Positions 3,846 through 18,227 of a DNA stretch of 32,000 nucleotides are shown in pieces (positions within the stretch are counted from its first letter, which is position 1; each line of letters starts with the position of its first letter). The notes under the pieces were generated by a model. The model made no database searches. It had not been told where the DNA came from and worked only from the letters and a program-made list of their open reading frames with translations. This DNA is from Mesorhizobium sp. (GTDB lineage Bacteria > Pseudomonadota > Alphaproteobacteria > Rhizobiales > Rhizobiaceae): the NCBI GenBank assembly GCA_027492275.1, contig JAPUFC010000093.1:1-32000 (forward strand). Reading direction: 5' to 3'. Position numbers and translations under genes: made by a program.

Positions 3846-5276
3846 GTGCACATCGGCTATCGGGATCTGCGCGAATTCATCGGTCTTGTGGACGGGATCG
3901 GTGATCTCAGAAAGGTTTCCGGGGCATCGCTGGACCGGGAGATCGGAGCGATAACCGAGGTCGCCGCCGGCGATCCCCAGTGTCCGGCATTGCTGTTCGA
4001 CGACATACCCGGCCAGCCGCGTGGAAACCGGGTGTTCACCAATGCCACCGTGAACAGCAGGCGCGCCGCGCTTGCGCTGGGGCTCGACCCCGAGCTTCCC
4101 GCGCTCGACGCGCTGAAGGCGTGGAAGCAGAGGCGTTCCGGGCTGAAGCCGTTGGCTCCCGAGGTCACCAGCGACGTTCCGGTGATGGAGAACACGGTCT
4201 CCGGGAAGGACGTCGACCTGTCCCGCTTCCCGGCTCCCGTCTGGCACAAGCATGACGGCGGCCCCTATATCGGCTCGGGCAGCATCGTGCTGACGCGCGA
4301 CCCCGACACCGGCTGGGTGAATTCCTCGATCTACCGGGTCCAGGTGCATGACCGGAACGTCGTGACCGTGCAGTTCGACCACAATGGCAGGCACGGCGCG
4401 ATGATCGCGCGCAAATACTGGGACAAGGGCGAAGCGTGCCCCATCGTTCTGGTGCATGGGCAGGACCCGTCGCTGTTCATCGCCGGCTTCGAATATCTTC
4501 CGGACGGCGCCTCCGAGCTGGATTTCGCCGGGGCGATACGCGGCGCGCCGGTGGAGGTGTTCAAGGGGCCGCTGACGGGGATGCCCATTCCCGCGCGCGC
4601 CGAGATCGTGATGGAAGGCCGCCTGTTGCCGCTTGGCGAGAAGAGCCTGCCCGAAGGACCGTTCGGCGAGTTCACCGGCTATTACGCCGCCGACCGCCGG
4701 CCGGGGCCGGTCATGGAAATCGACGCCGTCTATCACCGCACCGATCCGATCCTGTTCGGCTCGCCGCCCTTGAAGCCGCCGCGCTTCCACTTCGGCCTGT
4801 CGTTCCGGGCGGCCGGCATCTGGGCCAATCTGGAGGCCGTCGGCGTCACCGACATCGTCGGCACGTGGCAGCACGTGTCGCAGCTCATGACGGTCATCGC
4901 GCTGAAGCAGCGCTATGCTGGGCACGCCAAGCGCGCCGGCCTGATCGCGGCGGCCAACACCTATATGGGGCGCATCGTGGTGCTGGTGGACGACGACGTC
5001 GATCCCACGAATCTCGCGGACGTGATGTGGGCCGTCACCACCCGGGCCGAGCCGTCCGAGGACGTCGACATCGTCCGCAATGCGTGGAGCTCTTCGCTGG
5101 ATCCGCGCATTTCGGCCGAGAATCGCGCGATCGGGCTGACCTCCAATTCCAAGATGATCATCGACGCCTGCATCCCCTTCGACCAGCTTGACGGCTATCC
5201 CAGGACGACGGCGCTGAGCATCGCGGAGAGCAACGAGGTCCGCAAGCGCTGGTCGGGCGTGTTCAGGTCGCGCTGA
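3846..5276 (+). CDS. UbiD-family (prFMN-dependent) aromatic acid decarboxylase
   Basis: 476 aa with a GTG start 6 nt after GGAGG. N-terminal YRDLREFIGLVD, VNSSIYRVQV, and the conserved EGPFGEFTGYY motif. Size is typical of UbiD/VdcC-type enzymes. Confidence 0.9.
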   Translation: MHIGYRDLREFIGLVDGIGDLRKVSGASLDREIGAITEVAAGDPQCPALLFDDIPGQPRGNRVFTNATVNSRRAALALGLDPELPALDALKAWKQRRSGLKPLAPEVTSDVPVMENTVSGKDVDLSRFPAPVWHKHDGGPYIGSGSIVLTRDPDTGWVNSSIYRVQVHDRNVVTVQFDHNGRHGAMIARKYWDKGEACPIVLVHGQDPSLFIAGFEYLPDGASELDFAGAIRGAPVEVFKGPLTGMPIPARAEIVMEGRLLPLGEKSLPEGPFGEFTGYYAADRRPGPVMEIDAVYHRTDPILFGSPPLKPPRFHFGLSFRAAGIWANLEAVGVTDIVGTWQHVSQLMTVIALKQRYAGHAKRAGLIAAANTYMGRIVVLVDDDVDPTNLADVMWAVTTRAEPSEDVDIVRNAWSSSLDPRISAENRAIGLTSNSKMIIDACIPFDQLDGYPRTTALSIAESNEVRKRWSGVFRSR

Positions 5277-6830: not shown

Positions 6831-7799
6831 TTACTTGGCAGGCGTCGTGTAGAGGATGTCGATCACCTGGCGCTGCTCGCTTTCGGAAACGGGCTTGTCG
6901 ATGAACTTGGCGGCGATGGCCTCGCTCACGATCTGGTCGAAACCGCTGAGCGGACCGAAGGCCAGGGCCGACCGGTCGTAGAACTGCAGCGCCTTCTCGG
7001 CGGTCTTGGCGTCGATCTTGTTCATCTCCGCATAGGCCTTCACCGCCTCCGGCTTGTTGGCGTAGGCCCAGTCGATGCACTGGTCGAGCACGCGCATGAA
7101 GGTCGTCGCCGCGTCGCGGTGCTTCGTCAGGAATTCATCGGTGGCAGCGACGACGCGGCTGGTCGTCTCGCGCTGCGACTTGACGATGTCTCCGGTGAAG
7201 AGAACCCGCAACTGCCCTTCCTCGACCTTGCCGAGGAGGGCGGGCGGAATGCCGTAGCCGACATCGATCTGGCGCGTCATCACCAGGGTGTAGGTCGCAT
7301 CCGCGGGGCCGGTCGCCATGCGCTTGAAACCGAGATGTTGCTCCGCCTCGAGGCCGATCAGGATGTTCTCGCTGGGACCGCCCGGACGGGGAAATCCGAT
7401 GGTCTTGTCTTTCAAGTCGGCGACGGTCTTGATGGGGCTGTCCGACGGCACATAGAAGAACGTGTCGTTCTGACCCCGGAATTGCGCGCTGATGATCTTG
7501 AGCTTCGCTCCCTGCCGGAACGCCCCCAGCACGGTCGCGGTGCTCGGCGAATAGGCGATGTCCGCGGCGTGCGAGGCGAGCGCGGTGACGCTGGCGCCGG
7601 GCACGAACGTGACCTCGACGTCGAGGCCGGCTTTGGCGAACTCGCCGCGCTGCTGGCAGAAGGCCGGCTGGGACGTATCCCACAGGCCCGCCCAGGCGGA
7701 TGCCACCCTGATCTTTTGCGGTTGCTGGGCGTTGGCTTGGCCGGCGTGGGCGAAGGCGACGATGCCGGATAAGACGAGCGCAAGACTGATGTGCTTCAT
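6831..7799 (-). CDS. Periplasmic substrate-binding protein, NMT1/THI5-SsuA/TauA/NrtA-like (ABC-type), with signal peptide
   Basis: 322 aa. N-terminal signal MKHISLALVLSGIVAFAHAGQANA. The body (KIRVASAW...DLKDKTIGFPRPGGPSENI...) resembles aliphatic sulfonate/nitrate/taurine-type binding proteins. GGGAGA ribosome-binding site. Confidence 0.8.
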   Translation of the reverse strand: MKHISLALVLSGIVAFAHAGQANAQQPQKIRVASAWAGLWDTSQPAFCQQRGEFAKAGLDVEVTFVPGASVTALASHAADIAYSPSTATVLGAFRQGAKLKIISAQFRGQNDTFFYVPSDSPIKTVADLKDKTIGFPRPGGPSENILIGLEAEQHLGFKRMATGPADATYTLVMTRQIDVGYGIPPALLGKVEEGQLRVLFTGDIVKSQRETTSRVVAATDEFLTKHRDAATTFMRVLDQCIDWAYANKPEAVKAYAEMNKIDAKTAEKALQFYDRSALAFGPLSGFDQIVSEAIAAKFIDKPVSESEQRQVIDILYTTPAK

Positions 7800-7909
7800 G
7801 TTGATCTCCCGTTACGAGCCGGTATTGTTTTGAAAAACAGGAAAGATGGTTTTTGCTACCCTCTGGAGTCGCATCGTTCACCCGGATGCCTCCTGTTGCG
7901 CAGCCGAGA

Positions 7910-7968
7910 TAGCTAAAAAGAAATATCAGTTATTTAGCTACTTGACAATGCAATTTTGTTGCTGCATT
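7910..7968. promoter_or_regulatory. Divergent promoter region with two inverted repeats and a consensus -35 box
   Basis: TAGCTAAA (7910-7917), 15 nt, TTTAGCTA (7933-7940). TTGACA at 7942-7947. AATGCA (7947-7952), 10 nt, TGCATT (7963-7968). Confidence 0.3.
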
Positions 7969-8027
7969 CCCGACGCCATCGGTTGAGACCCACGCAGATG
8001 GCTGCGGCGACGGATGGGAGCGAATCC

Positions 8028-9221
8028 ATGGGAAACCTGCGCGGCAAATACGCGATCGTCGGCATCGGCGAGACCAAGAGCGGAAAGCTGCCGGGCGTCA
8101 GCACGCTGGCGCTCCACACCGAGGCCGTGAAGCGCGCGATGGACGATGCGGGGCTTCGTCCCGACGAGATCGACGGCATGCTGGACAACCAGCCCCTGCA
8201 CGACCCTTTCCGCAACTATTCCATCGTCGTCGCTCATGCGCTGGGGATCAGCCCGACCTACAGCACCGACCTCGCGCTCGGCGGCGCGACACCGGTGCAG
8301 ATGGCCCAGCATGCCGCGATGGCGATCGACGCCGGCCTGGCGACGGCGGTGGCGTGCGTCCACGCCCGCAATTCGGCGTCGCTGCATCTGTTGCCGAAGA
8401 ACGGCGTCGGGTGCACGCGCGCCTATCATGGCGGCGTGCGCGACGGGGCGGATGATTTCGAGGATCCGTTCGGCCTGATGGCCGGTCCCGGCACGCATGC
8501 GTTCCTCGCGTCGCGCCATATGCATGATTTCGGCACGACCTCGGAGGATCTGGGGCAGATCGCGGTCTCGGCGCGCAGGCACGCCAATCTGAACCGAAGC
8601 GCGACCATGTACGCCAAGCCGCTGACGATCGAGGACCACCAGAGGTCGCGCTTCATCTCCGAGCCGCTGCGCCTCCTGGACTGCTCGCTCGTTTCCGACG
8701 GCGGCGGGGCGTTCATCGTCGTGTCCGCCGAGCGGGCGAAGGACCTGAAGAAAAAGCCCGTCTATATCCATGGCATGGGAAACCATCAGCCGTTTTCCAG
8801 CCTGAACGACGCCGAAAGCCTGACGACGCTGGGCGGCAAGGTGTCGTCGGACATGGCCTACCGCATGGCCGGCCTGGGTCCGAAGGACATGGATTTCGCC
8901 GAGCTCTACGACTGCTTCACGATCACCACGCTGATCACGCTGGAGGACTATGGGTTCTGTCCCAAGGGCGAGGGCGGGCGCTGGATCCAGGGCGGCCGGA
9001 TCGAGATAGGCGGCGAGCTGCCGGTCAACACGCATGGCGGTCTGCTGTCCCATGCGCATCTCGAGGGCGTGGCCCACATCACGGAGGCCGTGAAGCAGTT
9101 GCGCGGGGGAGAGGTCGAACCGGAGCGCCAGGTGGCCGATGCGAAGGTCGGCATCGTCAGCGGACATGGTGGCTACGCATCGACCCACACCACCATCATC
9201 CTCAGCAACGAGCAGGCGTAG
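8028..9221 (+). CDS. Thiolase-superfamily protein of the SCP-x/lipid-transfer (Ltp) type, apparently lacking the nucleophilic cysteine
   Basis: Start at ATG 8028, 7 nt after GGGAG; the ORF track extends it to 7956. KYAIVGIGETKSG..., ELYDCFTITTLITLEDYGFCPKGEGG, VNTHGGLLSHAHLEG are typical of SCP2-type thiolases. The nucleophile loop reads DLALGGATPVQM, with no Cys. Confidence 0.85.
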   Translation: MGNLRGKYAIVGIGETKSGKLPGVSTLALHTEAVKRAMDDAGLRPDEIDGMLDNQPLHDPFRNYSIVVAHALGISPTYSTDLALGGATPVQMAQHAAMAIDAGLATAVACVHARNSASLHLLPKNGVGCTRAYHGGVRDGADDFEDPFGLMAGPGTHAFLASRHMHDFGTTSEDLGQIAVSARRHANLNRSATMYAKPLTIEDHQRSRFISEPLRLLDCSLVSDGGGAFIVVSAERAKDLKKKPVYIHGMGNHQPFSSLNDAESLTTLGGKVSSDMAYRMAGLGPKDMDFAELYDCFTITTLITLEDYGFCPKGEGGRWIQGGRIEIGGELPVNTHGGLLSHAHLEGVAHITEAVKQLRGGEVEPERQVADAKVGIVSGHGGYASTHTTIILSNEQA

Positions 9222-9230
9222 GAGGGCGGC

Positions 9231-9659
9231 ATGGACGCTTCGAGCGAGACCGGGTATCGCAAACCCCTTCCGGAGATGGAGCCCGAGGAAAAGCCCTTCT
9301 GGGAAAGCCTCAGGCAGCACCGGATGAAGATCCAGCACTGCGAGGACTGCGGGAAATGGTGTTTCCTGCCGCGCACCATGTGCCCGCACTGCCTGTCGAC
9401 GAAGCTGGAGTGGAAGCCGGTCAGCGGACGGGGCAGGATCTTTGCGACGACGACGCAGCATCATCCCCCGTCGCCGGCTTTCGCCCAGGACGTTCCCTAC
9501 AACATCTCCCTGGTGGAGCTGGACGAGGGCGTGCGCATGATCACCAATGTGATCGGCTGCCCGGTCGAAAGCATCAAGATCGGCATGGCCGTGAACGTGG
9601 TCTATGACGACGTGACCGAGGATGTGACGCTGGCCAAGTTCAGGCCGGCAGGGGTCTAG
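9231..9659 (+). CDS. DUF35 OB-fold/zinc-ribbon protein (thiolase/aldolase partner, BbsA/ChsH2-DUF35-like)
   Basis: 142 aa. Four-Cys ribbon HCEDCGKWCFLPRTMCPHC, followed by an OB-fold-like part (GRIFATTT...ISLVELDEGVRMITNV). It starts 9 nt after the thiolase-like gene. Confidence 0.85.
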   Translation: MDASSETGYRKPLPEMEPEEKPFWESLRQHRMKIQHCEDCGKWCFLPRTMCPHCLSTKLEWKPVSGRGRIFATTTQHHPPSPAFAQDVPYNISLVELDEGVRMITNVIGCPVESIKIGMAVNVVYDDVTEDVTLAKFRPAGV

Positions 9660-9706
9660 TTGCCATCGGCGATCGCGATACGCTCAAAGCACGGGAGGAA
9701 GAGCAA

Positions 9707-10513
9707 GTGGCATCCAGCGCGGATCACGGGGCCGGTTTCGACGAGTTGATCTTCGAGGTCGCGGACGGCGTCGCGGTGATGACGATGAACCGCCCCAAGG
9801 CGCTGAACGCGCGGAACCGCAAGCTCCGTCGCGAACTCATCCGCGCCTGTGAGATCGTCGAGAAGTCGCCGGAGATCGTGGTCGGCGTTCTGACCGGTTC
9901 GGGCGAAAAGTCCTTCAGCGTCGGCCTCGACCTCAAGGAAGCGGCCGACGAGAGCTATGATCCCGTGACGTCGCGCTGGTCGATCGCGGACTCCGACGCC
10001 TCGGCGCTCGAGGCCGTGACCAAGCCGATGATCGCCGCGGTCAACGGCTACGCGCTCGGCGGCGGACTCGAGATCGCCCTGTGCTGCGACATGCGCGTCG
10101 CGGCGGACAATGCGGTGTTCGGATTTCCCGAGGCGTTGCGCGGCATCATGCCCGGAAGCGGCGGCACGCAGCGGCTGCCGCGGATCGTGGGGGTGACGGC
10201 GGCGATGGAGCTGCTGATGACGGGCGAGAGCATTTCGGCCGCGGACGCCGAGAGGATCGGCCTCGTCAGCCAGGTCGTCCCGCCGGCGGCGTTGCGGGAA
10301 ACCGCGATCGGGATGGCGCGACGCATCGCGCGCGGCGCGCCGGCGGCCACGCGCATGATCAAGGAAGCCGTGCTCAAGGGAATGGACATGCCTCTTGCGC
10401 AAGGCCTCGCCGTCGAGCGGGATCTGTCGAACCTGCTCTTTCTGACGCAGGACGCCCAGGAAGGGATGCGCGCTTTCGCCGAAAAGCGGCCTCCGGTCTG
10501 GCGCGGCCGATAG
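9707..10513 (+). CDS. Enoyl-CoA hydratase/isomerase (crotonase family)
   Basis: 268 aa with a GTG start after GGGAGGAAG. Both catalytic-Glu contexts are present: GYALGGGLEIALCCD and FGFPEALRGIMPGSGGTQRLPR. Confidence 0.9.
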   Translation: MASSADHGAGFDELIFEVADGVAVMTMNRPKALNARNRKLRRELIRACEIVEKSPEIVVGVLTGSGEKSFSVGLDLKEAADESYDPVTSRWSIADSDASALEAVTKPMIAAVNGYALGGGLEIALCCDMRVAADNAVFGFPEALRGIMPGSGGTQRLPRIVGVTAAMELLMTGESISAADAERIGLVSQVVPPAALRETAIGMARRIARGAPAATRMIKEAVLKGMDMPLAQGLAVERDLSNLLFLTQDAQEGMRAFAEKRPPVWRGR

Positions 10514-10534
10514 CCGGGGCGACAGGAGAGCGCC

Positions 10535-11728
10535 ATGTCTGCGAGACCGCGGCCCCATTCAGGCACTGCCGACGAAGAGGCGACGGCCGCGCCGCCCCTG
10601 AAGGGCATACGCGTGGTCGAGCTGACGACCGTCGTGACCGGCCCTTATGCCGGCATGATGCTCGCCGACCTCGGGGCCGACGTCGTCAAGGTCGAGCAGC
10701 CCGATGGCGGCGATCCCTTTCGCAGTTTCCAGGGCGGGCATTACGGCGCATATTTCTGCGCCTACAACCGCAACAAGCGCAGCATGACCCTGGATCTGCG
10801 CACGGAGGCCGGAGCTGCGGCGATCCGGGAGCTGATCGCGACGGCGGACGTCCTGCTGGACAACATGCGGCCCGGCGCGCTCGACCGGCTCGGCCTCGGC
10901 GACGCGGATATAAGCAGCCTCAACCCCGGCCTGATCCACTGCTCGATCACCGGCTTCGGTCCCGACGGTCCCTATGGCGCGAAGCCGGCCTACGATGCCG
11001 TCGCCCAGGCGCTCAGCGGCATGTCGAGCATGTTCTTCGATCCCGGCGACCCGCAGGTGTCCGGGCCGACCATCGCCGACAACGTGACCGCCCACAATGC
11101 CTGCCAGGCCGTCCTGGCCGCCCTGCTGGCGCGGGAGCGCGGCCAGCCTGCGCGCCGCATTCAGATCAACATGGTCGATGCCACGATCGCCTTCATGCCC
11201 GACATGTTCGGCGTCTGGTACAAGGACGGGCTCCTGCCGGGCGTCACCTCCCGGGCGCGTTACTCCCAGAGCTTCGCCTTTACTTGCAGCGACGACAAAA
11301 TGATCGCGCTGCATCTGTCGTCGCAGGACAAGTTCTGGAATATCTTCGTGGATGCTATCGAACGGCCGGATCTGTCCGCCGATCCGCGATTCTGCGACCG
11401 CAAGCTGCGCATCCAGAACTACGAAGAGCTCAGGAAGGCGCTGACCCCGATATTCCGGAGTCGCAGCCGGCCGGAATGGCTGGATTTCTTCGCCAGGATC
11501 GACGTGCCGATCGCCCCTGTCTATTCCATGGCCGAAGTCGCCGAGGACGCGCATGTCAAGCATCTTGGCACGTTCGTCACGGTTACGCACCCGCAGGAAG
11601 GGCCGCTGACGACGATCCGCCGTCCCATCTGGTTCGACGGTTCGAGGGACGACCAGCCGATGGCGCCGCCGCCGGCGTTGGGCGAGCACACCGAAGAAAT
11701 ACTGGCCGAGCTGCGGCTGAAGAAGTAG
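10535..11728 (+). CDS. Family III CoA-transferase (CaiB/BaiF/Frc-like)
   Basis: 397 aa. The N-terminal PLKGIRVVELTTVVTGPYAGMMLADLGADVVKVEQPDGGDPFR is the hallmark of family III CoA-transferases. Confidence 0.9.
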   Translation: MSARPRPHSGTADEEATAAPPLKGIRVVELTTVVTGPYAGMMLADLGADVVKVEQPDGGDPFRSFQGGHYGAYFCAYNRNKRSMTLDLRTEAGAAAIRELIATADVLLDNMRPGALDRLGLGDADISSLNPGLIHCSITGFGPDGPYGAKPAYDAVAQALSGMSSMFFDPGDPQVSGPTIADNVTAHNACQAVLAALLARERGQPARRIQINMVDATIAFMPDMFGVWYKDGLLPGVTSRARYSQSFAFTCSDDKMIALHLSSQDKFWNIFVDAIERPDLSADPRFCDRKLRIQNYEELRKALTPIFRSRSRPEWLDFFARIDVPIAPVYSMAEVAEDAHVKHLGTFVTVTHPQEGPLTTIRRPIWFDGSRDDQPMAPPPALGEHTEEILAELRLKK

Positions 11729-11803: not shown

Positions 11804-12475
11804 CTACAATTGGCGCGGCCTGGCATCGCCGCCGCTCATCCCGCGAACCGTGTCTTCCGATGTTCCGGTGGGGCGCAGCTCGAAGATGTCGGTGACGGAA
11901 GTATAGTCCAGGTAACCCATCCGCGCCAGGGGCCGGATCTTCAGCATATCGATCTTTCCGTCGTCTCCGATGACGTCGTCGTCGATGTGGATTCCCACGA
12001 CGCGCCCGATGACGACGGAGTTGAAGAGCGTCCTGGTGTCGGAAGGCAGGACGATCGTCTGGTAATGCTTGCATTCCAGGCTGATCGGACATTGCTTGAC
12101 GCGGGGCGGCCTCACCAGGCGGCACGGCTCGGCGGTCAATCCGGCTTCCGCCATCTCGTCGACCCCCGATTCCTCGATCATGCTGGTATGGATGATCGCG
12201 TCCCTCAGGGCATAGGTCGCTATGTTGAAGACGAATTCGCCGGAAGACTCCGCATTGGCGACACTGTCGCCCCGGCGTCCGTCCCAGCGCGTGTTGGCCG
12301 AGAACATGACATAGGGCGGGTCCCAGCCCAGGATGTTGCTTTGGCTGAAGGGGGCGAGGTTGACGACATCGTCGCGGTTCACCGTCGAGATCCAGGCGAT
12401 CGGACGGGGCACGACACAGGATTTGAAGGGGTTGAAAGGCAGCCCGTGATTGTTTTTGGCCGGTTCGTAGAACAT
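11804..12475 (-). CDS. Flavin reductase-like FMN-binding domain protein
   Basis: 223 aa. FKSCVVPRPIAWISTVNRDDVVNLAPFSQSNILGWDPPYVMFSAN matches the flavin_reduct family. Confidence 0.8.
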   Translation of the reverse strand: MFYEPAKNNHGLPFNPFKSCVVPRPIAWISTVNRDDVVNLAPFSQSNILGWDPPYVMFSANTRWDGRRGDSVANAESSGEFVFNIATYALRDAIIHTSMIEESGVDEMAEAGLTAEPCRLVRPPRVKQCPISLECKHYQTIVLPSDTRTLFNSVVIGRVVGIHIDDDVIGDDGKIDMLKIRPLARMGYLDYTSVTDIFELRPTGTSEDTVRGMSGGDARPRQL

Positions 12476-12598: not shown

Positions 12599-13657
12599 AT
12601 GGCAGACGAAACCGCATTTTCACTCAACAAGCGCGAATTCCTGACGGGCATGGTGGCGGCCGGCGCCGCGGCCATGGTGCCGGCGGCTGCGTTCGGGGCG
12701 GACGACCGCCTCGTCTTCGCGAATTACGGCGGGTCCTGGGAGCAGGCCATGCGGAAGGCCTGGATGGATCCCTTCACCAAGGAAACCGGTATCCAGGTGG
12801 TCAGCGCGAGCGGCAACACGCTCGGACGCATGCAGGCCATGGTGGAGGCCGGCAAGGTCGAGTGGGACCTCGTCGAGGGCACGCCCGACCTGGCCAGCGT
12901 CGGAATCCAGAAGGGCCTTCTGGAGCCGCTGGACTTCAAGGTGATCGACCGCAGCCTCATGCTCGACAGGCCGGAGTTCCGCTCCGACTACATGGTGCCG
13001 GGCGTCATTCTGGGGCGGCTTCTGGTCGTCAACCAGAAGCTCGGCCCGGTGCCGCCGGAATGGCCCTCGCTGTTCGACGTCGCGCGGTTCCCGGGCAAGA
13101 GGGCGTTCTGGACGAAGGCCGACAGCGGCCTGCTGGAAATCGCCCTGATGGCCGACGGCGTTCCCGCCGACAAGCTTTATCCGCTGGATCTGCCGCGCGC
13201 GTTCAAGAAGCTCGATACGATCAAGAAGGATATACTTTGGTTCGAGACAGTCACCCAGAGCGAGCAGTTCATGCGCGACGGCCAGGCCGTCATGGGCCTG
13301 CTTGCCGACGGCCGCGCCTACAATGTGAAGAACAGCGGCGGCCCGGTCGAGATCCTGCCGGAGGCGTCCATCCTGCTGTGGTCCGTCCTCGTCGTGCCCA
13401 AGGGCGCGCCGAACAAGCAGGCGGCGATGAGGTTCCTCTCCTACATCTACACGGTGAAGGCCCAGACCGCGATCGCCATGGAGTACAATTATGGTCCGAT
13501 CATGCAGAAGGCGATTGACCAACTGCCTCCCGAGCGCGTGGCGCTCATCTCCGGCGGGCCGTCGACGAAGGGGAAGGGCGTCTTCCTGAACAGCGCGTGG
13601 TGGAACGAGAACCTCGAGCGTGTGACCGAACAGTTCCTCAACTGGCGGCTCGGCTGA
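12599..13657 (+). CDS. ABC transporter periplasmic substrate-binding protein, PotD/PotF-like (family 1)
   Basis: 352 aa. Signal-like N-terminus KREFLTGMVAAGAAAMVPAAAFG, then LVFANYGGSWEQAMRKAW. GGAGG ribosome-binding site. First gene of a 4-gene transporter operon. Confidence 0.85.
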   Translation: MADETAFSLNKREFLTGMVAAGAAAMVPAAAFGADDRLVFANYGGSWEQAMRKAWMDPFTKETGIQVVSASGNTLGRMQAMVEAGKVEWDLVEGTPDLASVGIQKGLLEPLDFKVIDRSLMLDRPEFRSDYMVPGVILGRLLVVNQKLGPVPPEWPSLFDVARFPGKRAFWTKADSGLLEIALMADGVPADKLYPLDLPRAFKKLDTIKKDILWFETVTQSEQFMRDGQAVMGLLADGRAYNVKNSGGPVEILPEASILLWSVLVVPKGAPNKQAAMRFLSYIYTVKAQTAIAMEYNYGPIMQKAIDQLPPERVALISGGPSTKGKGVFLNSAWWNENLERVTEQFLNWRLG

Positions 13658-13678
13658 CAGGGCTTTCGGGGGCAAGCC

Positions 13679-14524
13679 ATGCCTTACTCGCGTCACCAGG
13701 GCCTGGTAACGTTCGCGTTTCTTGCGCCTGCGATCATTCTGCTGGTGGCGGTACTGATATGGCCCGTTCTTGATCTTGTCGGCAGAAGCTTTCAAGATCC
13801 GGGCGGGCCGTTCGTTCTCTACGCCCGGCTGCTCGAAGTGCCGATCTATCTTCGGGTTCTCGCCCGGACTCTGCTGTTCAGCGTCGCGACGTCGCTGGTT
13901 TGCCTGGTTCTCGGCTATCCGGTCGCCTACGCGCTTGCGAGGGCCAGGCCGCTGGCGCGGGCGATCATCCTCGTCTGCATCCTCCTGCCGTTCTGGACCA
14001 ACCTTCTGGTGCGCACCTACGGCTGGATCCTGATCCTGAACCCGCAGGGCATCGTCAACACCGTGCTGCTCCAGCTCGGCATCATCTCGGCGCCGCTTGA
14101 TATCGTCTACAATTTCCTGGGAGCGTTGATCGGCATGTCGCAGATCATGCTGCCTTACCTGATCCTCCCGGTCTATTCGGTCATGGTGAAGCTCGACCCG
14201 CAGCTCGCGAACGCGGCGCGTACGCTGGGCGCCGGACCGGTGAGGACATTCGTCAGCATCTACTTCCCGCTGACATTGCCCGGCGTCATGGCGGGCCTGC
14301 TTCTCGTCTTCACCATCAGCCTCGGCTTCTTTGTCATACCGGCGATCCTGGGAGGATCGGGAGGGCTGTTGCTCGCGCAGCTCATCGAGTTCAACGTCAA
14401 CACCTCGTTGAACTGGGGAATGGCGTCGGCGCTGTCCACCACTCTCCTGGCGGCGACGCTGCTTCTGTACATGATCGGCGACCGCTGGTTGAATCTTGGC
14501 GCCATATGGGGGCTGCGTCGATGA
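13679..14524 (+). CDS. ABC transporter permease (PotB-like)
   Basis: 281 aa, multiple hydrophobic spans. EAA-type loop LANAARTLGAGPVRTFVSIYFPLTLPG. Confidence 0.85.
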   Translation: MPYSRHQGLVTFAFLAPAIILLVAVLIWPVLDLVGRSFQDPGGPFVLYARLLEVPIYLRVLARTLLFSVATSLVCLVLGYPVAYALARARPLARAIILVCILLPFWTNLLVRTYGWILILNPQGIVNTVLLQLGIISAPLDIVYNFLGALIGMSQIMLPYLILPVYSVMVKLDPQLANAARTLGAGPVRTFVSIYFPLTLPGVMAGLLLVFTISLGFFVIPAILGGSGGLLLAQLIEFNVNTSLNWGMASALSTTLLAATLLLYMIGDRWLNLGAIWGLRR

Positions 14525-15342
14525 TGCACTCTGGTCTTGCCGGGCGTCTGTTCGGCGCCGTCGTCGTCGCGATCTGTGCTTACCTCATCTTGCCGACTCT
14601 GGTGGTTGTTCCCGTCTCGTTTACGGAGACGAGCTTCATCGTTTTCCCGCCCAAGGGCTTCTCGCTGCGATGGTACGCCGAGTTCCTCAGCGATCCGGCC
14701 TGGCGCAACGCGACGCTGACGAGCATCCTGGTCGCCACGGTCAGCGCGATCTGCGCGACGTCGGTCGGAACCCTGGCCGCGTTCGGGCTCAACCGGCTTT
14801 CCGGCGTGCTGGCGCGCGCCGCGATCTGGCTGCTGCTGCTGCCGATGCTCGTGCCGAGCATCATCCTGGCCGTGGGCTTCTACGGCGTGCTCGCGCGGTT
14901 CGGCATCGTCGGCACCAAGTTCGGGCTTATCGTCACGCACACCGTGCTGGCCATTCCCTTCGTCGTGATCACCGTGTCGGCGACGATCCAGAAGCTGGAC
15001 TGGCGCATCGTCGATGCCGCCCGCAGCCTCGGCGCGGGTCCCGTGACCGCGTTCTGGAAGATCACGGTCCCGGCTATACTTCCGGGAATACTGGCCGGAG
15101 CGACCTTCGCCTTCCTGACGAGCTTCGACGAGATCGTGGTGGCGTTCTTCGTCAGCGGCGTCAACTCGGTCACCCTGCCGGTTCAGATGTGGAACGGCAT
15201 CCGTTTCGAGATCAGCCCGGCGGTGGCGGCTGCGTCCTCGATCCTGCTGGCGCTTTCGCTTGTCGTCGTGTTTTTCGTTTCGGTTATGCGGCGGCGCGAG
15301 GAAACCAATGCGCGCCGGCCGGCGGAAATCGGTCATCTTTGA
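14521..15342 (+). CDS. ABC transporter permease (PotC-like)
   Basis: The start ATG 14521 overlaps the upstream TGA (ATGA); the ORF track extends it to 14506. EAA-type loop IVDAARSLGAGPVTAFWKITVPAILPG. Confidence 0.85.
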   Translation: MMHSGLAGRLFGAVVVAICAYLILPTLVVVPVSFTETSFIVFPPKGFSLRWYAEFLSDPAWRNATLTSILVATVSAICATSVGTLAAFGLNRLSGVLARAAIWLLLLPMLVPSIILAVGFYGVLARFGIVGTKFGLIVTHTVLAIPFVVITVSATIQKLDWRIVDAARSLGAGPVTAFWKITVPAILPGILAGATFAFLTSFDEIVVAFFVSGVNSVTLPVQMWNGIRFEISPAVAAASSILLALSLVVVFFVSVMRRREETNARRPAEIGHL

Positions 15343-15356
15343 GGACATTTGCCGCG

Positions 15357-16445
15357 ATGAAGCTTGGTGCCTCCATCGAAATACAGGGTCTGAAGAAGAC
15401 CTACGGCCCGCTGACCGTTGTCGACCGGATATCCCTGTCGGTCGCGCCGGGCGAGTTCATCTCCCTGCTGGGCTCGAGCGGGTCCGGCAAGACCACGACC
15501 CTGATGATGGTCGCGGGGCTCACCATGCCCGACGCGGGAGAGATCGTCATCGGCGGCCGGGAGATTTCGCGCCTGCCGCCGGAAAAGCGCGCGCTTGGGG
15601 TGGTCTTCCAGAGCTATGCGCTTTTCCCGCACTATACTGTCTTCAACAATGTCGCTTTTCCGCTGAGGCTGCGGAAAGTCGCCGAGGCGGACATCAAGAG
15701 GCAGGTGCAGGAGGTTCTCGACAAGGTCGGCCTTTCGGCCCTGGGCGGCCGGAAGATCGGGCAACTGTCGGGTGGCCAGCAGCAGCGTGTCGCCCTTGCC
15801 CGGGCGATCGTGTTCTCGCCTCCGGTCCTGTTGATGGACGAGCCGCTCGGCGCGCTGGATCGAAAGCTTCGCGACCAGTTGCAGACCGAGATCAAGCGCA
15901 TCCAGCGCGATCTCGGCGTGACGGTGATCTACGTGACGCACGACCAGGAAGAGGCGCTGGCGCTTTCCGATCGCATCGCCGTCATGAAGGACGGCCGCAT
16001 CGACCAGATCGGAACGCCGGATGAAATCTACGAAAAGCCGGGCTCTCCCTTCATCGCCGGCTTTCTCGGCGAGTCGAATTTCATCGATGTCACGCGCGGC
16101 AGGAATGCCGGGGACGATGCCCAGGTGGTCTGCGTCGCCGACCTGGCGAGGAGCTTCGTCGGCCGCCTGGCGAACGACGCCGCGCGCGCGACGGATCTTG
16201 TCGCCGTCATTCGTCCGGAGGCGATCGAGATCGCAGGCGACGGGACCCGGCTCGACAATCAGATAGAAGGCGTCGTCGAGCAGCGTGATTTCATGGGGGC
16301 GACGATCAGGATCGCTGTCCGGTGCAGTCTCGGCAAACTCGTCGTCCGCGTGTCCCGGCTTCATCTGGCGACGAATTGCGCGATCGGTCGCCCGGTTTCC
16401 CTGACCTGGCGTTCGAGGGACATGCTTCTCTTTCCCAGGACGTGA
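15357..16445 (+). CDS. ABC transporter ATP-binding protein (PotA-like)
   Basis: Real start MKLGASIEIQGLKK at 15357, inside the long ORF 14496..16445. Walker A GSSGSGKTT, signature LSGGQQQRVALARA, Walker B LLMDEPLGALD. Confidence 0.9.
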   Translation: MKLGASIEIQGLKKTYGPLTVVDRISLSVAPGEFISLLGSSGSGKTTTLMMVAGLTMPDAGEIVIGGREISRLPPEKRALGVVFQSYALFPHYTVFNNVAFPLRLRKVAEADIKRQVQEVLDKVGLSALGGRKIGQLSGGQQQRVALARAIVFSPPVLLMDEPLGALDRKLRDQLQTEIKRIQRDLGVTVIYVTHDQEEALALSDRIAVMKDGRIDQIGTPDEIYEKPGSPFIAGFLGESNFIDVTRGRNAGDDAQVVCVADLARSFVGRLANDAARATDLVAVIRPEAIEIAGDGTRLDNQIEGVVEQRDFMGATIRIAVRCSLGKLVVRVSRLHLATNCAIGRPVSLTWRSRDMLLFPRT

Positions 16446-16493
16446 GATCGAGACGGCGGCCGAGGAAGCCTGCCGGGGTATGGTCCGATCGCG

Positions 16494-17159
16494 ATGCGTG
16501 GTTGCCTTTCCTGCGTCATCGACGCAAAAGGCATGATCATCGAAACAGGCGTCGGCGAAGAGTTGGGAATGGTGACCGGAGCGAGGCCAAGGAAAACCAG
16601 GGCGGGAGCGGAGCCGCAGGACGGCAAGGAGACATACCGCCCGCCGCTCACCATATCGCATCGTTCTCTGTTGACCAAAGGCAGCGATATCGAGTTTCGC
16701 GAGACGATCTATCTCATGATCGAGATCTTGCGCATCTTCGATTCCTGCAACGCGGTTTTCGGCCGGGCGCTGGGCATCGCCGGCACGCAGTTTTCCGTCC
16801 TCATCGGCGTGGCGTTTCGTCAGGGCGAAGAGGGAATAACGATCAGCAGGCTGGCGAAATACATCCAGCTTTCCTCGACCCAGGTGACGATGGAAGTCAG
16901 CGCCCTCGTTCGCCAAGGCCTTCTCGTGAAACGCGCGGGCACGCACGATCGCCGCAGCGTGCTTGTCATGCTGTCGCCGGCCGGCCAGGACGCGATCGAG
17001 CAGGTCGTGCCCCTCATCCGCAAGGTCAACGACCTTCTGTTCGACGGGGTTTCGCACAAGCAGATGCTGCATCTCAAGGACATGTTCGCGCAGCTTTCGA
17101 AGAACAGCGAGTTCATGTGGGCCGAGATACGGCTCTACGAGCGCGAACACGATCGTTGA
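16494..17159 (+). CDS. MarR-family transcriptional regulator with an N-terminal extension (start uncertain: 16494, 16533 or 16569)
   Basis: FRETIYLMIEILRIFDSCNAVFGRALGIAGTQFSVLIGVA...ITISRLAKYIQLSSTQVTMEVSALVRQGLLVKRAGTHDRRSVLVMLSPAG is a MarR winged helix. Confidence 0.75.
   Translation: MRGCLSCVIDAKGMIIETGVGEELGMVTGARPRKTRAGAEPQDGKETYRPPLTISHRSLLTKGSDIEFRETIYLMIEILRIFDSCNAVFGRALGIAGTQFSVLIGVAFRQGEEGITISRLAKYIQLSSTQVTMEVSALVRQGLLVKRAGTHDRRSVLVMLSPAGQDAIEQVVPLIRKVNDLLFDGVSHKQMLHLKDMFAQLSKNSEFMWAEIRLYEREHDR
16504..16532 (+). promoter_or_regulatory. Bipartite inverted repeat/hairpin at the 5' end of the second MarR gene
   Basis: GCCTTT-cc-TGCGTC-atc-GACGCA-a-AAAGGC, two 6-bp arms. It ends 1 nt before ATG 16533. 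Confidence 0.3.
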
Positions 17160-17213
17160 CGGCTCGGCACGGCGCGCGCGAAGCGCTTCGACCGACCTTG
17201 CGGCTGACGAAAG

Positions 17214-18227
17214 TCATCCGATCGCGTCCGCGGCCCGTCGGGCGAACTTTTCTGCGAGGTCTCCCCTGGTCGCGGCGTCCTGCGCGGCGGCGGTGCCGGC
17301 CCGCGCCCGGTCGGCGATGCCGACGAAGATGACGGCGAAACGGAACAGCGCGAAGGCCACGTGGAAGCGCATCAGCGCCGGCGTCGGCACGGCCGAGGCA
17401 TAGTAGCGCGCCACGAACGCGGCCTGCCCGGGCAGTTTCATCCCGGCGAGATCGAGGCCGAGGATGCCGCCATACTCGTCGGGCGCGGTGTGCCAGGGCA
17501 TGCAGCAGAAGCCGAGGTCGGCCAGCGGATGGCCGAGCGTCGACAGCTCCCAGTCGAGAATGGCGACGACCTCCGCCTTCGTCGGGTGGAACAGAATGTT
17601 GCCGAGGCGAAAATCGCCATGCGCGATCGCCACCCGCCCGTCATCCTCCGGCTGGTTGTCGCGCAGCCAGGCGATGACGCGGTCGAGCGCGGGGATGCGG
17701 GGCGAGGGCGATTCGTCGTACTGCCGCGACCAGCGGGCGATCTGACGCGCGAAGTAGCTGCCGGGCTTGCCGTAGTCGGCGAGACCGATGGCGGCGGGAT
17801 CGACGGCGTGCAGCTTCGCCATCGCGTCGGCCATTGCGAAATAGAGCGGCGCGCGCTCGTCAGGCGCGGCCTGCGCCAGCGAGCACGCGTGGAACACGCG
17901 GCCCTCCACCCGCTCCATCAGGTAGAAGGGCGTGCCGATCAGGGCAGGGTCCTCGTGCAACAGCAGGGCTTTCGGCACCGGCACGCCGGTCTGCTCCAGC
18001 GCCTTGAGAACGCGATACTCGCGCTCGACCGCGTGGGCGCCGGGCAGGATGTCGCCGGCCGGCTTCTTGCGCAGCACCAGGCGGCGCGCTCCGTGGCCGA
18101 CGAAGAAGGTTGGGTTGGACTGCCCGCCGCCGACGCGCTCGATCGACAGCGGCGCGGAACCGAAGCGGTCGTCCAGGAAGCCGCCGAACCGTGCCACCGA
18201 GAATTCGGCGATGGTCTCGTCGCGCAT
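17214..18227 (-). CDS. APH/ChoK-fold phosphotransferase of the ACAD10/11 N-terminal-like (LvaA-like) type
   Basis: 337 aa, starting at MRDETIAEF inside the ORF 17214..19313. IERVGGGQSNPTFFV, VLRKKP, the catalytic HGDFRLGNILF motif and the ILDWELS metal-binding motif are all present. Confidence 0.85.
   Translation of the reverse strand: MRDETIAEFSVARFGGFLDDRFGSAPLSIERVGGGQSNPTFFVGHGARRLVLRKKPAGDILPGAHAVEREYRVLKALEQTGVPVPKALLLHEDPALIGTPFYLMERVEGRVFHACSLAQAAPDERAPLYFAMADAMAKLHAVDPAAIGLADYGKPGSYFARQIARWSRQYDESPSPRIPALDRVIAWLRDNQPEDDGRVAIAHGDFRLGNILFHPTKAEVVAILDWELSTLGHPLADLGFCCMPWHTAPDEYGGILGLDLAGMKLPGQAAFVARYYASAVPTPALMRFHVAFALFRFAVIFVGIADRARAGTAAAQDAATRGDLAEKFARRAADAIG

Follow-up and report, generated by a model that had tools for sequence, protein, structure and literature searches.

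Thiolase-fold aldolases have been biochemically characterized only for steroid side chains, in Ltp2 and Sal. TcLtp2 acts on the C3 side chain of steroids in complex with the DUF35 domain of ChsH2 (6ok1), and CtSal of Comamonas testosteroni acts on bile-acid C5 side chains in complex with the DUF35 domain of CtShy (9myr; PMC12329534). Both have a Gly at the site of the thiolase nucleophile; the catalytic residues are Tyr294 (in a YDHF motif) and Tyr344 in Ltp2 and Tyr302 and Cys304 (in YDCY) in Sal, and in CtSal the substitutions Y302F and C304A/S/H each abolished activity (PMC12329534, 2025). Here we compare with these systems an operon from Mesorhizobium sp. (GenBank assembly GCA_027492275.1), located in the first 32,000 nucleotides of contig JAPUFC010000093.1 (hereafter the window), in which a thiolase-like gene is followed by genes for a DUF35 protein, a crotonase and a family III CoA-transferase. 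We suggest, with a probability of roughly 0.6, that the operon encodes a CoA-dependent and dehydrogenase-free cleavage of C-C bonds by a hydratase/retro-aldolase route.

The four genes are co-oriented, are singled out by their high third-position GC content and are separated by gaps of 9, 47 and 21 nucleotides, in gene order. Open reading frames (ORFs) and Pfam matches placed all four exactly where an earlier, sequence-only reading of this DNA had put them:

8028-9221, plus strand: SCP2-thiolase-fold protein of 397 aa, without the nucleophilic Cys (Pfam Thiolase_C_1, 9.8e-53)
9231-9659, plus strand: stand-alone DUF35 protein with a C4 zinc ribbon and an OB fold (Pfam zf-ChsH2 and OB_ChsH2_C)
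9707-10513, plus strand: crotonase-type enoyl-CoA hydratase (Pfam ECH_1, 2e-74)
10535-11728, plus strand: family III (CaiB/BaiF) CoA-transferase (Pfam CoA_transf_3, 1.2e-107, full profile)

None of the four proteins matched an NCBIfam model at its curated cut-off. A GGGAG about 10 nucleotides ahead of the ATG at 8028 was read as a ribosome-binding site. The three gaps contain no terminator-like site, and same-strand sites of this kind occur only inside the last gene, at 11464-11483.

The sequence-only reading had stated that the thiolase-like protein has no Cys in its first ~115 residues. This was slightly overstated, as the first Cys is C110, but the nucleophilic Cys is indeed absent. When the protein was aligned pairwise by phmmer to solved structures, the loop that carries the CxS motif of the true thiolases 7yvy and 6esq (AACAS) fell opposite its LGGAT, and a Gly, Gly86 of LGGATP, rather than a Cys, occupies the position of the nucleophile. 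The same placement was obtained with an SCP2 thiolase paralog from the same genome (contig 68), which carries the motifs ACAS, HDCF and GHP, and Gly86 also aligns to Gly89 of CtSal, likewise at the thiolase nucleophile site. As for the remainder of the active site, Tyr294 aligns to Tyr294 of Ltp2 and Tyr302 of Sal, Cys296 (of YDCF) to Cys304 of Sal and to the HDCF cysteine of SCP2 thiolases, and Gly382 to the oxyanion-hole residue Gly391 of Sal. His344 aligns to the histidine of the thiolase GHP motif, a column that holds Tyr344 in Ltp2 and Gln352 in Sal. The His of the thiolase HDCF motif is replaced by Tyr294; with the nucleophile absent as well, only Cys296 and His344 are kept of the catalytic set of SCP2/BbsB-type thiolases. 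The analogy with Ltp2 drawn in the sequence-only reading thus stands for the Cys-less thiolase fold and the predicted DUF35 partner, but not for the Tyr/Tyr pair of Ltp2, as the site is of the Sal type (Tyr294/Cys296) with His344 retained. The catalytic set predicted from these alignments is a Sal-type Tyr/Cys dyad plus the retained thiolase His and a clade-specific Glu346.

These residues are highly conserved. Among 119 database homologs (58-91% identity), the loop D81-L-x-x-G85-G86-A-T-P89, the motif Y294-D-C-F and the segments N334-T-H-G-G-L-L-S-x-x-H344-x-E346-G and S-G-H380-G-G are invariant or nearly so. Furthermore, in the closest related locus (L090) the thiolase-like protein is 91% identical to that of Mesorhizobium, compared with 69-80% for four neighboring proteins, so that the thiolase-like gene is the most constrained of the set and is not decaying. 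Because the loop and motifs are invariant in the 119 homologs and the identity to the L090 protein reaches 91%, the loss of the Cys is no chance lesion or sequencing error.

Comparison with solved structures points to the same group of enzymes. The best phmmer match was 4u4e, a Cys-less 'putative thiolase' of Sphaerobacter thermophilus (3.7e-76), followed by the Ltp2-ChsH2(DUF35) aldolase 6ok1 (3.1e-68) and the Sal-Shy(DUF35) aldolase 9myr (2.9e-58), with the archaeal thiolases 7yvy (1.8e-46, the top true thiolase) and 6esq (1.3e-40) and the BbsB structure 7pxp (1.3e-35) below them. An AlphaFold2 model of the protein (pLDDT 81.3, pTM 0.86) yielded the same ranking in Foldseek, with 4u4e, 6ok1 and 9myr at TM 0.82-0.90 and 7pxp at rank 22. 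Thus, 4u4e, Ltp2 and Sal outrank the archaeal and SCP2 thiolases and BbsB, in sequence as well as in fold. The top match, 4u4e (Foldseek 3.4e-39; TM 0.82/0.90), is a structure-only entry from structural genomics; like our protein, it lacks the Cys (VGGSS) and keeps the thiolase-type His, but it has YDSF instead of YDCF. Ltp2, the second-best solved match (Foldseek 1.7e-36), has the same fold, no nucleophilic Cys, the base Tyr294 at the identical position and a DUF35 partner with a C4 ribbon, and differs in having YDHF (His296) and Tyr344 where our protein has Cys296 and His344. CtSal has the SCP2-thiolase fold, the Gly of an LGGA(T/S) loop, the Tyr-Asp-Cys motif (Tyr302/Cys304 for Tyr294/Cys296), the oxyanion hole of the Gly391 type (Gly382 here) and a DUF35 partner, which is predicted in our case, in common with our protein, but shares only 33% identity with it (Foldseek), carries YDCY rather than YDCF and acts in a steroid context, which our locus lacks. 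The DUF35 domains of the two systems also differ: that of Sal forms the C-terminal part of a MaoC hydratase and binds zinc through a C3H1 site, whereas that of our operon is free-standing and has a C4 site.

The other proteins of the operon were compared in the same way. The DUF35 gene follows at exactly 9 nucleotides, and the intact CxxC...CxxC ribbon that had been noticed in its product reads C37-x2-C40-x10-C51-x2-C54, the canonical C4 zinc-ribbon spacing (PMC12329534). The best solved matches of this protein are the DUF35 chains of the two aldolases (9myr_B, 2.5e-30; 6ok1_B, 4.3e-24), ahead of the archaeal thiolase adaptor (1.1e-14) and BbsA (3e-4), and it is the predicted partner subunit of the aldolase. 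The earlier descriptions of the crotonase, with both catalytic Glu contexts, and of the downstream family III CoA-transferase were borne out by alignment to 2pbp and to SUGCT (9br6), respectively. GGGLEIA and FGFPEA of the crotonase align to the two Glu contexts of 2pbp (the equivalents of rat Glu144/Glu164), and among solved structures it is most similar to ordinary hydratases (2pbp, 1.1e-61; 5zai; EchA8), with HCHL at only ~3e-33. The Asp in YDAVAQA of the CoA-transferase aligns to the YDAVA motif of SUGCT, and we take it to be the catalytic residue by analogy with Asp169 of Frc. The nearest characterized relatives of this protein, SUGCT (9br6, 1.3e-56), formyl-CoA transferase and YfdE, act on dicarboxylates, and its matches to the NCBIfam models for succinate-glutarate and succinyl-CoA:mesaconate transferases lie below the cut-offs.

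Another line of evidence comes from the gene neighborhoods of related loci. Among 85 loci retained from a genome scan plus look-ups of encoding contigs, the DUF35 gene directly follows the thiolase-like gene in 82, and genes for enoyl-CoA hydratase (32 loci), family III CoA-transferase (28), acyl-CoA dehydrogenase (26) and UbiD-family proteins (5) lie within 6 kb of the pair. The Pfam-annotated contexts of the protein's own subclade are as follows, with the identity of the thiolase-like protein to ours:

L090 (91%): NMT1, thiolase-like, DUF35, enoyl-CoA hydratase, CoA-transferase, then on the opposite strand acyl-CoA dehydrogenase and alpha/beta hydrolase
L005 (78%): thiolase-like, DUF35, acyl-CoA dehydrogenase, enoyl-CoA hydratase
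L091 (76%): the 76% gene and its DUF35 gene at a contig end; a second, partial pair on that contig with thiolase-like, DUF35, acyl-CoA dehydrogenase and two CoA-transferases
L007 (73%): thiolase-like, DUF35, acyl-CoA dehydrogenase, two CoA-transferases, enoyl-CoA hydratase and, further on, two aldehyde dehydrogenases
L092 (71%): thiolase-like, DUF35, two acyl-CoA dehydrogenases, enoyl-CoA hydratase, ABC transporter parts, NMT1, CoA-transferase
L093 (70%): thiolase-like, DUF35, enoyl-CoA hydratase

Orthologs of the crotonase accompany the thiolase-like gene in L090 (80% identity), L005 (64%), L007 (56%) and the Binatia loci (51-53%). The CoA-transferase is orthologous only in L090 (77%) and shares 26-37% identity with those of the other loci, so that this step is often exchanged among modules. 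The module acyl-CoA dehydrogenases of the relatives are 51-75% identical to each other, and no clear ortholog of them was found in the Mesorhizobium genome, where the best match (43-50%) is encoded just right of the window, at 32225-33367 of the contig. These comparisons support the view that an acyl-CoA dehydrogenase belongs to the ancestral module, and that our operon either lost the gene or relies on one elsewhere. A dehydrogenase for the 3-hydroxyacyl intermediate is a different matter. There is no 3-hydroxyacyl-CoA dehydrogenase (3HCDH) gene in the operon, tblastn with four 3HCDH seeds found none at any of 89 loci, and neither a 3HCDH nor a short-chain dehydrogenase/reductase (SDR) is present in six Pfam-annotated contexts of the protein's own subclade. 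Some genes next to the module in the relatives may hint at the substrate class: directly upstream of the thiolase-like gene are a glutamate-mutase E-like gene (Met_asp_mut_E) in L093 (864-3543) and genes for a class II aldolase and a TauD-type dioxygenase in L005 (7144-8838), and both L005 and L007 carry PF06684 (AA_synth) genes.

A hydratase/retro-aldolase route predicts a gene set that resembles that of beta-oxidation, with an acyl-CoA dehydrogenase, a hydratase and a 'thiolase', but without a 3-hydroxyacyl-CoA dehydrogenase. That the 'thiolase' lacks its nucleophile yet keeps the residues that are catalytic in Sal makes the agreement even better. From the gene content, residues, conservation, neighborhood and closeness to aldolase complexes observed above, we infer that the subunits associate, which reaction they catalyze and in which direction, and what kind of substrate is used, as follows. 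The CoA-transferase would form the acyl-CoA of a carboxylate, with succinyl-CoA or a similar compound as the probable donor, and the crotonase would hydrate a 2-enoyl-CoA to a 3-hydroxyacyl-CoA. The 2-enoyl-CoA might derive directly from an unsaturated acid or be made by an acyl-CoA dehydrogenase encoded elsewhere; since the modules of the nearest relatives include a dedicated acyl-CoA dehydrogenase, its source is probably a saturated acyl-CoA. The thiolase-fold protein, bound to the DUF35 protein, would then split the C2-C3 bond by retro-aldol cleavage into an aldehyde or ketone and acetyl-CoA (or propionyl-CoA). In a mechanism whose residue roles are drawn from CtSal and thiolase structure, Tyr294 would take the proton of the 3-OH group, the enolate would be held in an oxyanion hole formed by the backbone amides of Gly86 and Gly382, Cys296 would protonate C2, and His344 would probably tune Cys296 and Tyr294. 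Because the nucleophilic Cys is a Gly, no acyl-enzyme should be possible. The proposal of the sequence-only reading that cleavage proceeds by retro-aldol chemistry rather than thiolysis is therefore supported by homology and context, that is, by Gly86, the matches to aldolase complexes and the lack of a 3HCDH.

Several points weigh against this proposal. The active site is not identical to that of Sal, whose oxyanion-hole residue Gln161 and whose Gln347 and Gln352, located around the catalytic Cys, correspond to a Gly, Leu339 and His344 here, and the retained thiolase His together with the invariant His157, His336, Glu346, His350, His380 and His387 could serve other chemistry. The AlphaFold2 model is poor at the loop 126-151 and at residues 341-343, beside His344. 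In addition, the hydratase of our operon is a crotonase, whereas Ltp2 and Sal follow MaoC-type hydratases that themselves carry the DUF35 domain. An acyl-CoA dehydrogenase gene is missing from the operon, and the window ORFs scanned contain no aldehyde dehydrogenase Pfam domain. Finally, the tblastn scan that placed an SDR gene within 3 kb at only 7 of the 89 loci had, with its single SDR seed, limited sensitivity and may have missed divergent SDRs.

The residues shared with thiolases, and a dehydrogenase supplied from elsewhere, are the basis of one alternative, in which the protein cleaves 3-oxoacyl-CoA noncovalently: water that His344 activates would add to the 3-keto group, and the departing acetyl-CoA enolate would take its proton from Cys296. 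The thiolase set is largely kept except for the nucleophile (His344, Cys296 and the amide hole of Gly86/Gly382), and at least six 3HCDH-type dehydrogenases are encoded elsewhere in the genome. However, neither the operon nor the six subclade contexts contain a dehydrogenase of the 3HCDH or SDR type, 3HCDH is missing from all 89 loci, and the HDCF His is replaced by the invariant Tyr294, the catalytic base in both known aldolases. We know of no thiolase-fold enzyme with such hydrolytic activity on 3-oxoacyl-CoA, and we regard this alternative as improbable. The YDCF motif and the relatives of the CoA-transferase that act on dicarboxylates might instead indicate that the protein decarboxylates a malonyl-type or other dicarboxylyl-CoA supplied by the CoA-transferase, as the Trypanosoma brucei protein TbSLP slowly does with malonyl-CoA. 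TbSLP has the same YDCF motif (PMC12329534), and the conserved Arg114 and Arg163 could bind a second carboxylate. This is nevertheless quite improbable in our judgment, because TbSLP is a distant relative (phmmer 6.5e-19; 23-25% identity by Foldseek), and the co-inherited hydratase and acyl-CoA dehydrogenase would be left without a role; moreover, the kcat of TbSLP is only 0.005 per s, an aldolase role was proposed for it by the authors themselves, and CtSal does not have such activity (PMC12329534).

The missing nucleophile could also mean that the thiolase-like protein is a pseudoenzyme, a non-catalytic scaffold that organizes the crotonase or another enzyme via DUF35, for which an adaptor role is known from the archaeal thiolase/HMG-CoA synthase complex and from PhlABC. 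This seems very unlikely, given that the active-site residues, including those catalytic in Sal, are strictly invariant in the 119 homologs, that the protein is the most conserved of the module, and that relatives with the same loss (Ltp2 and Sal) are active enzymes. There is just as slight a chance that the module runs synthetically, joining acetyl-CoA to an aldehyde or ketone in an aldol reaction and then removing water; aldolases are reversible and sequence does not fix the direction, but the operon has a catabolic setting, with genes for binding proteins, importers, decarboxylases and MarR/LysR regulators around it and no biosynthetic genes nearby, and relatives carry acyl-CoA dehydrogenases and aldehyde dehydrogenases. 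We rejected a true BbsAB-like thiolase as part of a split beta-oxidation gene set, the most remote of these explanations, on the grounds of the absent nucleophile and of weak matches to BbsA and BbsB. BbsAB does share the DUF35/thiolase pairing, and the NCBIfam models for BbsB (1.8e-36) and BbsA (7.3e-9) are hit far under their cut-offs; yet a Gly stands in place of the nucleophilic Cys, the aldolases are far ahead of 7pxp for the one subunit and of BbsA for the other, and the nearest SDR gene lies in a separate operon on the opposite strand, 9 kb away. Each of these alternatives is less consistent than the hydratase/retro-aldolase route with the combination of an invariant Tyr/Cys dyad, an absent nucleophile, a missing dehydrogenase and a catabolic setting.

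Cys-less thiolase/DUF35 pairs are no rarity but a very large family. When 1.84 billion cluster representatives were searched exhaustively with HMMER, 1,099 clusters (50% identity) reached E <= 1e-30, and in the scan of species-representative genomes two clade motifs were matched at least 599 times. The loop Cys is absent in 137 of the 140 nearest full-length cluster representatives, in which the residue after YD is variable (YDCF 45, YDCY 7, A 27, S 14, and others), and none of the 85 loci has a Cys at the nucleophile column, with L028 having one a residue later. A maximum-likelihood tree, built without the Ltp2, Sal and 4u4e reference sequences, placed our protein in a clade of 23 sequences that all have GG, YDCF and H344-x-E346 (SH-aLRT 94; 98 for the 22-row core). 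This clade is apart from Ltp2-type sequences (YDHF/Tyr), including a paralog 46 kb away on the same contig, from the clade that contains IpfD (YDAF or YDCY plus Tyr) and from a YDCF/Gly clade; YDCY-type proteins lie outside it, and several further YDCF/His clades are distinct from it. Taken together, these comparisons support an assignment of the locus to an uncharacterized clade of predicted thiolase-fold aldolases, here joined by a crotonase and a free-standing DUF35 protein.

Within the same taxonomic family, no ortholog with more than 45% identity was found in 150 sampled genomes, and close relatives are encoded in unrelated lineages, namely in metagenome-assembled genomes of Pseudorhodoplanes (76%), an actinobacterium (73%), and Binatia and deltaproteobacteria (~60%). 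The module is therefore patchy in its distribution. Searches for near-identical DNA or close plasmid relatives found none that covers the module, and the best plasmid protein match was 45% identical. The genome carries three more genes of the SCP2-thiolase fold. One on the same contig (L002, 52568-56674) encodes an Ltp2-type protein without the Cys, with YDHF and Tyr344, and lies between genes for an acyl-CoA dehydrogenase and a DUF35 protein, with an MFS transporter gene beyond the latter. The other two both adjoin an acyl-CoA synthetase gene and encode a Cys-less YDCT/Tyr protein (L004, contig 71, 93265-97368) and the canonical thiolase with ACAS, HDCF and GHP (L003, contig 68, 34878-38645). 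Together with our protein, those of L002 and L004 make three distinct Cys-less active-site types in one genome.

The same loss of the Cys that is known from steroid degradation is tied in this large family of relatives to partners of the ordinary beta-oxidation type, namely a crotonase, an acyl-CoA dehydrogenase and a CoA-transferase, and full-text searches found no functional literature on non-steroid members. It is tempting to go further and speculate that the His344-x-Glu346/YDCF clade forms a functional class of its own, composed of acyl-CoA aldolases for non-steroid substrates, with a third catalytic solution (Tyr/Cys/His), although we hold this to be doubtful. If it were true, the clade, with its crotonase and acyl-CoA dehydrogenase, would clear acids whose beta-carbon cannot be oxidized, such as 3-alkyl-branched, ring-attached acetic or propionic, and substituted dicarboxylic acids, releasing a ketone or aldehyde and acetyl-CoA, and it would supply genes for activities that have none assigned, for instance a reaction of the (1-hydroxycyclohexyl)acetyl-CoA lyase type. 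If the hydratase/retro-aldolase prediction itself holds, many genes of soil, groundwater and freshwater bacteria now called 'acetyl-CoA acetyltransferase' or 'thiolase family protein' are misnamed and would mark a dehydrogenase-free shortening of organic acids, and the Tyr/Cys/His site would be new to this enzyme family. Nothing known is overturned; the chemistry was anticipated by the work on Ltp2 and Sal, and similar modules are common.

Other described systems share parts of this design. In the ibuprofen pathway, IpfD-IpfE is a genetically required pair of a Cys-less thiolase-like protein and a DUF35 protein that works on a CoA thioester (pIBU218, NZ_CP059320; PMC9195938). We considered IpfDE as the closest relative and rejected it: IpfD is 37% identical to our protein, no closer than Ltp2, differs in its motifs (EG, YDAF and Tyr344) and clade, and acts after a ring dioxygenase rather than a hydratase. 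The same plasmid carries, at a distance of ~7 kb from the ipf cluster and flanked by copies of IS6100, a second, uncharacterized set (50938-56123) that matches our operon in gene content, with genes for an alpha/beta hydrolase, a hypothetical protein, a CaiB-type CoA-transferase, an enoyl-CoA hydratase, an OB-fold (DUF35) protein and an Ltp2-type 'lipid-transfer protein'. The thiolase-like protein of this second set has YDHF/Tyr, unlike ours, and term searches of PMC9195938 found no mention of the set. TbSLP (5ab4-5ab7), proposed as an aldolase (PMC12329534), has the identical YDCF and no nucleophilic Cys, but is eukaryotic, 23-25% identical and without a DUF35 partner. Cys-retaining thiolase/DUF35 complexes show the same pairing and differ in their nucleophilic Cys, in their Claisen or thiolytic chemistry and in much weaker matches for both subunits. 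The logic of CoA activation, hydration and retro-aldol cleavage without a dehydrogenase is also found in HCHL (2vss) and in the routes of itaconate and mesaconate through a CoA-transferase, a hydratase and a lyase. However, in HCHL one crotonase performs both steps, whereas our crotonase resembles plain hydratases, and the lyase of the C5-dicarboxylate routes is of the CitE/HpcH type, whereas that predicted here has the thiolase fold.

Upstream of the operon, two further features can be described:

6831-7799, minus strand: NMT1/SsuA-type periplasmic binding protein (Pfam NMT1; NCBIfam SsuA_fam below cut-off)
7800-8027, no strand: divergent intergenic region with an inverted repeat, TTGACA and GGGAG (sequence reading)

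An ortholog of the binding protein (69%) is encoded directly upstream of the L090 operon, where it is co-oriented with the operon, whereas the gene is inverted here; the protein is a probable uptake component of the module. By phmmer it had no solved homolog at E <= 1e-3, and the genes adjacent to it encode neither a permease nor an ATPase. NMT1-family genes also occur near the pair in L008, L011, L037, L092 and L093, but with 28-30% identity they are not orthologous, and we rejected the idea that the NMT1 binding protein accompanies the module throughout; L090 has the only ortholog, and elsewhere the association is a hint at the level of the family. A strong terminator hairpin lies by the gene, at 6802-6779. 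In the divergent region, a perfect 7-bp inverted repeat, AGCTAAA-N15-TTTAGCT, is found at 7911-7939, next to a TTGACA at 7942-7947. The repeat occurs once in the window, with 0.00 occurrences expected by chance; it was found in none of the related loci searched, and any regulatory role is putative.

The surrounding genes encode UbiD-family and amidohydrolase_2 decarboxylase-type proteins, an FmdA-like amidase, RidA, two importers, a flavin reductase and MarR/LysR regulators, and describe a catabolic island with no conserved link to the operon. The flavin reductase (11804-12475) was rejected as part of the module, as it has no detectable similarity to those beside the L005 and L007 modules. Further downstream, a PotD-type importer (12599-15342) consists of a binding protein and two permeases, with no ATPase gene among the ORFs scanned, and the ORFs at 15333-17150 (minus strand) and 16322-17332 (plus strand) have no Pfam match at 1e-5. 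The UbiD-family gene at 3846-5276 (plus strand), 2.7 kb upstream of the operon, has a close solved relative in 7pda (8.8e-118), and its product resembles VdcC and the beta subunit of phenylphosphate carboxylase. UbiD-family genes also lie 0.6-4.6 kb from Cys-less thiolase/DUF35 pairs in five unrelated loci (L022, L035, L038, L040 and L043), and four of these five pairs are of the YDCF/Tyr344 type.

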